Below are positions 23,241-45,485 of a stretch of DNA of 56,040 bases, one piece after another. The notes under the pieces were generated by a model, which was given only the letters and a program-made list of their open reading frames with translations, was not told where the DNA came from and ran no database searches. A program made the position numbers and the translations under genes. Source of the stretch: a virus (lineage: Duplodnaviria > Caudoviricetes); IMG/VR virus record IMGVR_UViG_3300003937_000295, positions 1 through 56,040 of that record, one strand, 5' to 3'. Each line of letters starts with the position of its first letter. Within the stretch, counting starts at the first letter, position 1.

Positions 23241-23325
23241 TAGGAGTAGGGGGACTTGAACCCCCACGACCTTAATGGTCAACAGATTTTAAGTCTGGTG
23301 CGTCTACCGATTCCGCCACACTCCC
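23241..23325 (-). tRNA. tRNA-Leu (anticodon UAA), CCA not encoded
   Basis: GGGAGTG/TACTCCT acceptor stem, TGGCGGAATCGGTAGACGC D arm, CAGA-CTTAAAA-TCTG anticodon arm, long variable arm, GGGGGTTCAAGTCCCCC T arm. Confidence 0.95.
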
Positions 23326-44887: not shown

Positions 44888-44915
44888 AAAAAAAGAGGGT
44901 TTTGCAACCCCCCTT
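44888..44915 (-). terminator. Intrinsic terminator
   Basis: AAGGGGGGTT-GCAA-AACCCTCTT plus T run. Confidence 0.85.
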
Positions 44916-45013: not shown

Positions 45014-45181
45014 TCACTTGGCGTAAAGTTTACCACGATAACAGAATGTACCGTGAGTCTCTTTTGATTCTACACAACGTGTATCATACTCAACACCACG
45101 GTATGTAGTGTGAAGAACTTGTGCGTCATGTAGCGCAGATGCTTTTTGAATCTGCTTACGAATCAGGTTAAGCGTGTTCAT
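45014..45181 (-). CDS. DUF4278-like small protein (YRG motifs)
   Basis: MNTLNLIRKQIQKA..TYRGVEY..CYRGKLY; AGGAG SD; downstream of riboswitch. Confidence 0.8.
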   Translation of the reverse strand: MNTLNLIRKQIQKASALHDAQVLHTTYRGVEYDTRCVESKETHGTFCYRGKLYAK

Positions 45182-45189
45182 TTGTCAGT

Positions 45190-45399
45190 CTCCTGAAGTT
45201 AGGGTTTTAATCCCCGTTCCTTCAGTCGTGTGCGTCCCAATACCACTGGCATTCTGGCGCAGAATCCTTTAAGGTTTCTACTAACTCAATCTTAACTTGA
45301 TTGCTAAGATTAGCATTGTTCTCAATCTTCAGCACGATAGCATCAGTTTGAGTGCATGAGAGTGTTGTATAGAATAATAGTTCTAGCATGGGATGAACG
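45190..45399 (-). ncRNA. Glutamine-II (Downstream-peptide) riboswitch-like aptamer 2 with ORF in its P2 loop
   Basis: CGTTCATCCCA ... TGGGACGCACACGACTGAAGGAACG; CTGAAG complementary to CTTCAG overlapping the SD. Confidence 0.7.
45222..45389 (-). CDS. 55-aa protein nested in riboswitch
   Basis: MLELLFYTTLSCTQTDAI..APECQWYWDAHD; GGAG upstream. Confidence 0.7.
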   Translation of the reverse strand: MLELLFYTTLSCTQTDAIVLKIENNANLSNQVKIELVETLKDSAPECQWYWDAHD

Positions 45400-45403
45400 A
45401 CTC

Positions 45404-45447
45404 CGTTCCGCGACTTACTTGCGTCCCACCCAAGAGTGGGATGAACG
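45404..45447 (-). ncRNA. Glutamine-II (Downstream-peptide) riboswitch-like aptamer 1
   Basis: CGTTC-A-TCCCAC(loop)GTGGGA-CGCAAGTAAGTCGCG-GAACG. Confidence 0.7.
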
Positions 45448-45456
45448 TCAGGTCTT

Positions 45457-45485
45457 ATTATAGACCTCATACATTATTTAGTCAA
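45457..45485 (-). promoter_or_regulatory. Sigma70 promoter with nested late-promoter variant
   Basis: TTGACT-N17-TATAAT; CTAAATA overlaps the -35. Confidence 0.75.

Follow-up and report, generated by a model that had tools for sequence, protein, structure and literature searches.

How can a riboswitch aptamer house a complete protein-coding gene? This question is raised by positions 45,190 to 45,485 of a DNA stretch of 56,040 nucleotides (nt) from a virus of the Caudoviricetes (IMG/VR record IMGVR_UViG_3300003937_000295). This whole stretch, hereafter called the window, covers 56 kb of the genome of a T4-like cyanomyovirus. An earlier note, made from the sequence alone, had listed on its minus strand a promoter, a compact glutamine-aptamer-like element, the two halves of a split aptamer and a 55-codon open reading frame (ORF) between these halves, and all of these elements are indeed present. 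They had been interpreted as a compact aptamer in tandem with an independent split one. Covariation among related phages instead pairs the 5' strand of the first unit with the 3' strand of the second, and the middle strands with each other. It is concluded that the conserved fold is one composite type-1 (glnA) aptamer and not two aptamers side by side. The reading that we favour, and consider fairly probable, is that the region forms the leader and body of a small cyanomyovirus operon under one elaborate type-1 (glnA-class) glutamine riboswitch, with protein genes in its stem-loops. The finding is conserved and more remarkable than first described, and its architecture differs from the one first proposed.

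Two incomplete units read as one composite aptamer

The strands of the aptamer and the gene that it encloses are located as follows (all on the minus strand).

45447..45404 (-): compact glutamine-aptamer-like element, CGTTCATCCCAC..GTGGGACGCA..GGAACG
45447..45421 (-): 5' part of the composite aptamer, with the 5' strand of helix P1 (CGUUC, 45447..45443), an A, the P2 hairpin UCCCAC/GUGGGA and the linking strand ACGC
45420..45411 (-): 5' half of loop E, AAGUA (45420..45416), and 5' strand of P3, AGUCG (45415..45411), assigned from Rfam composite alignments and P3 covariation
45409..45394 (-): inner hairpin GAACG-GAGU-CGUUC, with GGAACG at 45409..45404 and CGUUCA at 45399..45394
45404..45401 (-): Shine-Dalgarno (SD) sequence GGAG of the nested ORF, in the inner hairpin and completed by the 4-nt linker
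45399..45387 (-): second 5' half, CGTTCATCCCATG, equal to CGTTCATCCC plus ATG, i.e. a second CGUUCAUCCC continuing into the AUG
45393..45389 (-): 5' strand UCCCA of the long-range stem, including the A of the nested AUG
45389..45222 (-): nested ORF, 55 codons and stop (phrog_504, T4-GC_430, Syn9 gp197-like)
45239..45215 (-): second 3' half, TGGGACGCACACGACTGAAGGAACG, with the nested stop TGA at 45224..45222
45239..45229 (-): 3' strand UGGGA of the long-range stem (45239..45235) and junction CGCACA, together encoding W-D-A-H
45228..45214 (-): 3' strand of P3, CGACU (45228..45224), loop-E GAA (45223..45221) and 3' strand of P1, GGAACG plus G (45220..45214)

The pattern of the compact element matched once in the window, with 0.00 matches expected from 100 shuffles. 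In the composite, the outer P1 is formed by the first CGUUC (45447..45443) and the last GAACG (45219..45215), and P3 opens into a junction with two branches, the inner hairpin GAACG-GAG(U)-CGUUC and the stem UCCCA:UGGGA that encloses the 55-codon gene. The first unit contains AAGUA and AGUCG and lacks GAA, the second contains CGACU and GAA and lacks AAGUA. Neither unit is therefore a complete type-1 aptamer alone, and only their combination yields the consensus of the type-1 glutamine riboswitch (glnA RNA, RF01739).

The pairing of P3 across the two units could be followed in 288 contexts. It was paired in all of them without mismatches, and the second pair occurred as G-C (269), A-U (14), U-A (3) and G.U (2). 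The strands were AGUCG:CGACU (268), AAUCG:CGAUU (11), GAUCG:CGAUU (3), AUUCG:CGAAU (3), AGUCG:CGAUU (2) and GGUCG:CGACU (1). As a directed test, loci were selected by a variant 5' strand before the partner strand was inspected; the partner was complementary every time. The complementarity of AGTCG to CGACT had been pointed out in the earlier note for two copies of AGTCG, of which the one in the first aptamer is this covarying strand. The copy in the linker was found in only 10 of 227 related loci and is therefore probably incidental, and it was dropped as a conserved element.

The P1 strands change together in the same register. Wherever the first 3' strand reads GCAACG, the adjacent second 5' strand reads CGUUG (112/112 loci, a G-C to C-G swap), and the uncompensated GCAACG form was found in zero loci across IMG/VR. 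In nine loci, a first 5' strand CGUUU occurs together with a last 3' strand AAACG, which changes the fifth pair of the outer P1 from C-G to U-A; the other four pairs are invariant. The P3 covariation and these co-changes together indicate a single fold, in which the first and last strands form the outer P1 and the middle strands the inner hairpin. Covariation of long-range P1/P2 across cyanophages, which the earlier note had named as a check, was thus borne out for the stem closing the ORF and contradicted, at the fifth pair, for a P1 formed within each unit.

An Rfam scan of the window gave no match at the gathering score in this region. The first unit alone reached 24.3 bits with RF01739 (gathering score 35) and 23.2 bits with the type-2 model RF01704 (gathering score 33), and the window stays below the RF01739 threshold because the model cannot span the 190-nt insert. 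Versions without the ORF, closed by ordinary covarying hairpins, occur naturally (seven distinct ones). Such natural relatives were used with unaltered sequence in place of an artificial deletion of the insert for Infernal. In five of seven compact relatives tested, the RF01739 gathering score was passed, and only by the composite (43.6, 43.6, 42.9, 40.3 and 38.4 bits against 35), with P3 (AGU..ACU) spanning 38 to 48 nt. In the alignments of the compact relatives, AAGUA and GAA fall on the loop-E columns of the model, which places loop E at the level of sequence; AAA stands in place of GAA in 29 of 103 sequences. The long-range C:G pair that closes the binding pocket would be formed by the C of ACGC and the G 3' of GGAACG; both are present and invariant, an invariance that is uninformative on pairing. 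The composite was predicted to be 2.4 to 4.3 kcal/mol better than the side-by-side fold.

Several observations weigh against the favoured reading. The numbers given are counts of sequences and not of independent events, and a single ancestral change, or a few, may underlie the G-C to C-G swap in the inner hairpin, even though nine different linkers accompany it. The remaining two of the seven compact relatives (L260 and L244) gave no match at the gathering level. Both aptamer folds lie 7 to 13 kcal/mol above the minimum free energy (MFE) structure, according to nearest-neighbour energies that omit tertiary and ligand terms. The helix that could sequester the downstream SD masks only 2 nt of AGGAG. 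We infer glutamine binding by the composite from matches to the consensus. Among contigs of four RNA libraries, one identical 176-nt contig spans 45215..45390 and the remaining contigs derive from relatives, and such contigs cannot reveal transcription, transcript ends or strand. Finally, the P1 sequences are retained exactly in the inner strands, and synonymous sites are frozen in the second GGGACGCA; neither is obviously needed by a purely structural branch, which hints that a side-by-side register or strand exchange also plays a part.

Alternative registers of the four P1 strands

According to the first alternative, two independent glutamine-binding aptamers would lie side by side, a compact one followed by a split type-2-like (Downstream-peptide) one with the ORF in its P1 loop, and the composite pairing would be a by-product of the repeat. 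Each unit does contain CGUUCA, a stem, GGGACGCA and GGAACGG, and both the P1 sequence retained by the inner strands and the frozen ligand-contacting-like nucleotides of the second unit would be expected. In addition, the second unit alone reaches the RF01704 gathering score in one compact relative (34.0 against 33 in L254; 25.9 in L236), and a two-piece type-2 aptamer is described as assembling in a passage of Huang 2019 (PMC6698751). This arrangement is nevertheless unlikely. For at least 88 loci, it would place C.C and G.G mismatches at the fifth pair, whereas the composite register is perfect there, and the nine further loci with an outer U-A pair are compatible only with the composite. Moreover, each unit lacks one loop-E half and one P3 strand, with P3 covarying across the units, the score of the first unit alone is well below threshold, and the predicted energy is the poorer of the two.

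In a second alternative, which extends the favoured reading, the RNA would isomerise, in the manner of a four-strand exchange, between the composite with its inner hairpin and the side-by-side register, and ribosomes on the nested genes would set which register can be reached. The four P1 strands are interchangeable in 269 of 282 tabulated contexts. Ten rows of this table give CGTTG, CGTTT or CGTTA for the first 5' strand; they probably stem from matches within the gp196-like ORF (described below) that were assigned wrongly. The conservation of the second unit beyond the needs of a branch and the position of the nested SD exactly between the exchanging strands also fit such a switch. However, in the variant lineages one register is weakened by a mismatch in each helix while the whole architecture is kept, and a strand-exchange switch appears quite improbable.

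The nested ORF as a protein-coding gene

That a whole gene is nested in the aptamer, as first claimed, held up on coding entropy, whole-codon indels and the conserved halves. Judged from its sequence conservation, the nested ORF is a genuine conserved protein-coding gene. Its codon-position entropy is 0.476/0.196/0.718, its length varies from 52 to 56 codons by indels in multiples of three, and GGAG is found 10 to 11 nt 5' of the nested AUG in 216 of 227 loci. The protein matches 309 phage records (identity 31 to 89%), among which Cys and Glu positions are conserved, and AlphaFold gave a confident three-helix model (predicted local distance difference test score, pLDDT, 81.6). This model had no Foldseek match in the PDB at E<=0.001. 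The protein had no Pfam match either, its PHROGs family (phrog_504) is without assigned function, and its ESM Atlas clusters are all unnamed.

All of this argues against the ORF being an untranslated, merely structured spacer in the RNA, a view favoured by the location of its SD, in a small hairpin, and of its AUG, within a stem. The entropy profile and whole-codon length changes, a family extending down to 31% identity with Cys and Glu conserved, the confident model and the GGAG at fixed distance make a spacer very improbable.

A scan of prokaryote genomes with a single peptide pattern, which does not establish the absence of the protein from cyanobacteria, returned one match with 53% identity (L350, NHGE01000043.1). 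This 10-kb contig belongs to a metagenome-assembled genome labelled Euryarchaeota and is most likely a mis-binned cyanophage contig.

RNA-level selection on the ends of the nested gene

The positions where gene and aptamer overlap provide clear signs, in their codon usage and pairing, that the aptamer halves are under selection at the RNA level. UGGGACGCACACGACUGAAGGAACGG serves both as the end of the nested ORF (W-D-A-H-D-stop) and as the aptamer 3' half, and the last five codons of the ORF are frozen at synonymous sites, whereas the ORF body uses all Ala and Asn/His codons. The ratio of GAC to GAT is 170:0 and 165:5 for the two terminal GAC codons against 63:388 in the ORF body; for the terminal GCA the counts are 169:0 against 244:302 across the body, and for the terminal NAC 170:0 against 192:321. 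TAG was never used as nested stop in the loci of this comparison. In S-CAM1, the nested ORF stops early and the 3' half persists downstream of the stop as non-coding RNA.

The stem of 5 bp that closes the 160-nt ORF loop could be compared in 275 distinct split sequences. Pairs 1 to 4 were paired in 274 to 275 of them, with compensatory changes at each of these pairs, e.g. UA 270, CG 4 and GC 1 at pair 1, and CG 239, UA 20, UG 15 and UC 1 at pair 4. Some compensatory changes in the partner strand coincide with a replacement in the protein (D to G, W to K or D to E). The position of the start codon in the 5' strand of a stem, and of the last codons and TGA in the 3' part of the aptamer, is thus confirmed by the frozen synonymous sites and the covarying stem. 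It is scarcely credible that the halves are relics, or are kept for coding and translation initiation only, with no RNA structure across the ORF: conservation could be explained by the coding role of the 3' half and by the position of the 5' half in the initiation region, but synonymous sites are frozen contrary to the codon preference of the ORF itself, S-CAM1 keeps the 3' half outside its ORF, replacements accompany partner changes, and the covariation of P3 and the stems already contradicts this view.

Distribution and further genes in the aptamer loops

The region matched 420 phage records (blastn). Every copy of the ORF retained the 5' half and the 3' half (228/228, i.e. 227 fetched loci and the window). 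In an unbiased sample, the second 3' half was also found in 75 of 75 testable loci with the first 3' half. Among 80 loci sampled without bias, the first and second hairpins were compact/split in 54 loci, split/split in 17, compact/compact in 6 and split/compact in 1. In one locus (L278), an unrelated ORF is enclosed by a different 9-bp stem.

The first (P2) hairpin covaries and varies in length. It is compact in the window, and in 76 of 228 loci, including Syn9, S-CAM1, S-IOM18, S-TIM66 and Syn19, it encloses a gene for a gp196-like protein of 66 amino acids, with the AUG in the 5' strand of the stem and the stop codon in the 3' strand. Position 3 of this stem was CG in 26, UA in 15, UG in 2 and AU in 1 of 44 unique sequences, and the observed pairing was reached by 0 of 2000 partner shuffles. 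An extended stem of more than five pairs was rejected as a conserved feature, with positions 6 to 9 paired in only 19 to 32 of 88 unique sequences. The gp196-like protein belongs to phrog_6471, without assigned function, and had no Pfam match. That the two nested proteins are distant paralogues is only suggested by the comparison of their sequences (hhalign probability 34.6%, E 4e-4, 37 columns).

Upstream of the gp196-like ORF, three loci (L351, L355 and L360) carry a duplication of the first 5' half around a small hairpin (CGTTCATCTTATG-TGTAA-CATAAG-TTCATCTTATG), which yields a mini stem-loop and a second copy of the 5' strand. Three other loci (L391, L409 and L458) contain a large ORF that occupies the inner-hairpin loop and so separates the first GGAACGG from the second CGUUCA, and remnants of it were observed in L037, L073 and L294, the remnant in L073 including a small helix-turn-helix-like ORF. 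It seems that a mobile element has entered here, in what would be a third loop that tolerates insertions.

About one in four related loci (e.g. L002:920-975, L005 and L091) carry, instead of the short hairpin after the aptamer, an unassigned structured element of 45 to 55 nt between aptamer and SD, of the form ..ACGGAUCC-stem-GNRA-stem-GAGAAGGUU.., the inner stem of which covaries (CAGC/GCUG, CUGC/GCAG, CACC/GGUG).

The operon and its proposed control

The remaining features of the small operon, likewise on the minus strand, are listed below.

45485..45457 (-): sigma-70-like promoter TTGACT-17-TATAAT, with 11/12 consensus positions, kept in relatives
45214..45201 (-): small GGG/CCC hairpin 3' of the aptamer, followed by CUUCAGGAG
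45225..45193 (-): anti-SD helix of CUGAAG (45225..45220) with CUUCAG (45198..45193), overlapping the downstream SD AGGAG (45194..45190)
45181..45014 (-): putative regulated gene for a DUF4278/IF17-like protein of 55 amino acids (phrog_545, T4-GC_937, Syn9 gp198-like)
44915..44892 (-): intrinsic-terminator-like hairpin and T run, closing the small operon

The protein encoded downstream scored 20.8 bits with Pfam PF14105 (E 5e-4), under the cut-off of 25.3. Within its family, 16 of 17 members matched PF14105 at E<=0.01 (best 3e-06), and two YRG motifs are invariant. Passages of Klahn 2018 (PMC6212724) and Huang 2019 (PMC6698751) name DUF4278 (IF17-like) genes as known glutamine-riboswitch targets in cyanobacteria, where the riboswitches are ON switches. 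The former also describes, in part of its text, picocyanobacterial IF17-like proteins as lacking the C-terminal part required for interaction with glutamine synthetase in Synechocystis (Klahn 2018, PMC6212724).

The pairing of CTGAAG with CTTCAG over the next SD, which had been proposed from the window alone, was substantiated by covariation. The central pair of the anti-SD helix was GC in 55, AU in 29 and GU in 19 sequences and unpaired in none, and a separate tally gave A:U 65 and A:C 0. The same central change also switches the nested stop between UGA and UAA. The predicted ligand-free MFE structure contains both the inner hairpin and the anti-SD helix. Because their sequences overlap, P3 with loop E and the anti-SD helix are mutually exclusive.

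By analogy with gifB (Klahn 2018) and with the type-2 structure (Huang 2019), it is plausible that the pairing of CUGAA with the downstream SD constitutes a glutamine-ON platform. Without glutamine, the SD of the DUF4278/IF17-like gene would be partly masked by the CUGAA:UUCAG helix. With glutamine, CGACU would be drawn into P3 and GAA into loop E of the composite aptamer, and this fold would dissolve the anti-SD helix and switch on the IF17-like gene, in the way known for cyanobacterial gifB. The nested SD lies in the inner hairpin, the AUG in the ORF-closing stem and the stop codon in P3 and the anti-SD helix, so that a ribosome and the folded aptamer would exclude each other. From this geometry we infer that translation of the nested ORF and folding of the aptamer are mutually exclusive. 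Glutamine would then be expected to disfavour the nested gene, and translation of the nested gene to reset the switch transiently. A two-step logic gate over two genes is offered as a hypothesis.

Further observations concern the surroundings of the switch. GUUCAU of the first aptamer strand (45446-45441) is the complement of AUGAAC, with which the DUF4278 gene begins (45181-45176), and these segments are paired in the predicted MFE structures of the window and of locus L236; this may be an extra start-codon sequestor or mere chance. The -10 box TATAAT lies within a perfect inverted repeat, AGGTCT ATAATA AGACCT (45467..45450, minus strand), which is retained in relatives with different arms, e.g. 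GGTATAATTACC and GGTAGACTACTACC, and might bind a regulator as its operator or form a structure where the transcript begins. An ORF for a hydrophobic peptide of 39 amino acids (45036-44917, minus strand) overlaps the end of the DUF4278 gene ahead of the terminator, and a similar small coding sequence is annotated in S-MbCM7. The sole match to Rfam at the gathering score in the window is a phage tRNA with a long variable arm (23241-23325, minus strand, 55.1 bits).

Implications

Riboswitch aptamers are usually viewed as compact non-coding domains 5' of genes, and here the variable stem-loops of a glutamine aptamer host genes. Nucleotides of the core helices are shared with a start codon, a stop codon, two SD regions and five sense codons, which is an extreme overlap of the codes for RNA structure and protein. 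Tentatively, and as a combination that we hold possible but short of probable, the element may be the first natural riboswitch with whole conserved genes in its aptamer, one or two in each, and with start and stop codons in core helices, for which ribosomes and glutamine would be two inputs and whose P1 strands would isomerise between registers. If so, the nested proteins and an IF17-like regulator of host nitrogen assimilation would be under reciprocal control by this RNA while the phage infects its host.

The analogy with the cyanobacterial targets points to a glutamine-dependent control of the IF17-like protein, and hence possibly of host glutamine synthetase, by marine cyanophages. A passage of one survey gives only two glutamine aptamers in cyanophage genomes and describes phages as rarely using riboswitches (McCown 2017, PMC5473149). 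The present element goes undetected in hundreds of cyanomyovirus genomes because of its inserts. If the joint reading is true, interrupted aptamers escape covariance-model searches, and riboswitches of this kind may therefore be much commoner in phages than reported. The locus offers a natural system, open to testing, for the coupling of ligand sensing to translation.

Comparison with known systems

The composite shares with RF01739 the P1 strands CGUUC/GAACG, a P2 stem-loop directly after CGUUCA, the linking strand GGACG(C) after P2, the loop-E halves AAGUA/GAA and P3. As in the cyanobacterial type-1 riboswitches described in part of Klahn 2018 (PMC6212724), a DUF4278/IF17-like gene is associated. 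Unlike in RF01739, P3 of the phage element is not a simple hairpin: it leads into a junction from which two branches arise, namely the inner hairpin, built by the second set of P1 strands, and the stem around the 55-codon gene. Its P2 may also harbour a gene of 66 codons, and start and stop codons form part of the stems.

With the type-2 riboswitch (Downstream-peptide motif, RF01704), the second unit shares CGUUCA, a stem and GGGACGCA, and GGAACGG lies within the helix CUGAA:UUCAG adjoining the DUF4278 gene. Unlike in RF01704, the enclosing helix of the phage also holds an extra hairpin and overlaps the SD. The type-2 pseudoknot, in which the 5' CGUUC of a unit pairs with GGAACG in its own P2 loop, has G.G as fifth pair in at least 88 loci. 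The strands of one unit are complementary in most loci, but the covariation of the fifth pair contradicts this register, and the window was therefore not classed as a type-2 member.

Tandem glnA RNAs are noted in a passage of Weinberg et al. 2010 (PMC2864571). Like these, the phage element has two aptamer-like units in a row; unlike them, its units are interlocked, with P1 and P3 formed between the units. Phrase-based literature searches, in which phrase matching cannot prove absence, returned no description of a gene or ORF within a riboswitch aptamer, and returned cyanophage glutamine riboswitches only as general mentions in T4-like cyanophages.

An ORF translated inside an ion- or metabolite-sensing leader is found in mgtA/mgtL of Salmonella, where ribosome position and ligand shape the fold. 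ORFs of the mgtA/mgtL type encode short leader peptides and lie in the expression platform, whereas the phage ORFs encode conserved proteins of 55 to 66 amino acids inside stem-loops of the aptamer. Coding sequence is also tolerated in loops of other structured RNAs, namely in the peripheral loops of group I and II introns and as the tag ORF of transfer-messenger RNA (tmRNA); to our knowledge, start and stop codons are not shared with the core helices there. Introns and tmRNA act in self-splicing and trans-translation, respectively, whereas the phage element would, by its consensus matches, be an aptamer of the ligand-sensing type.

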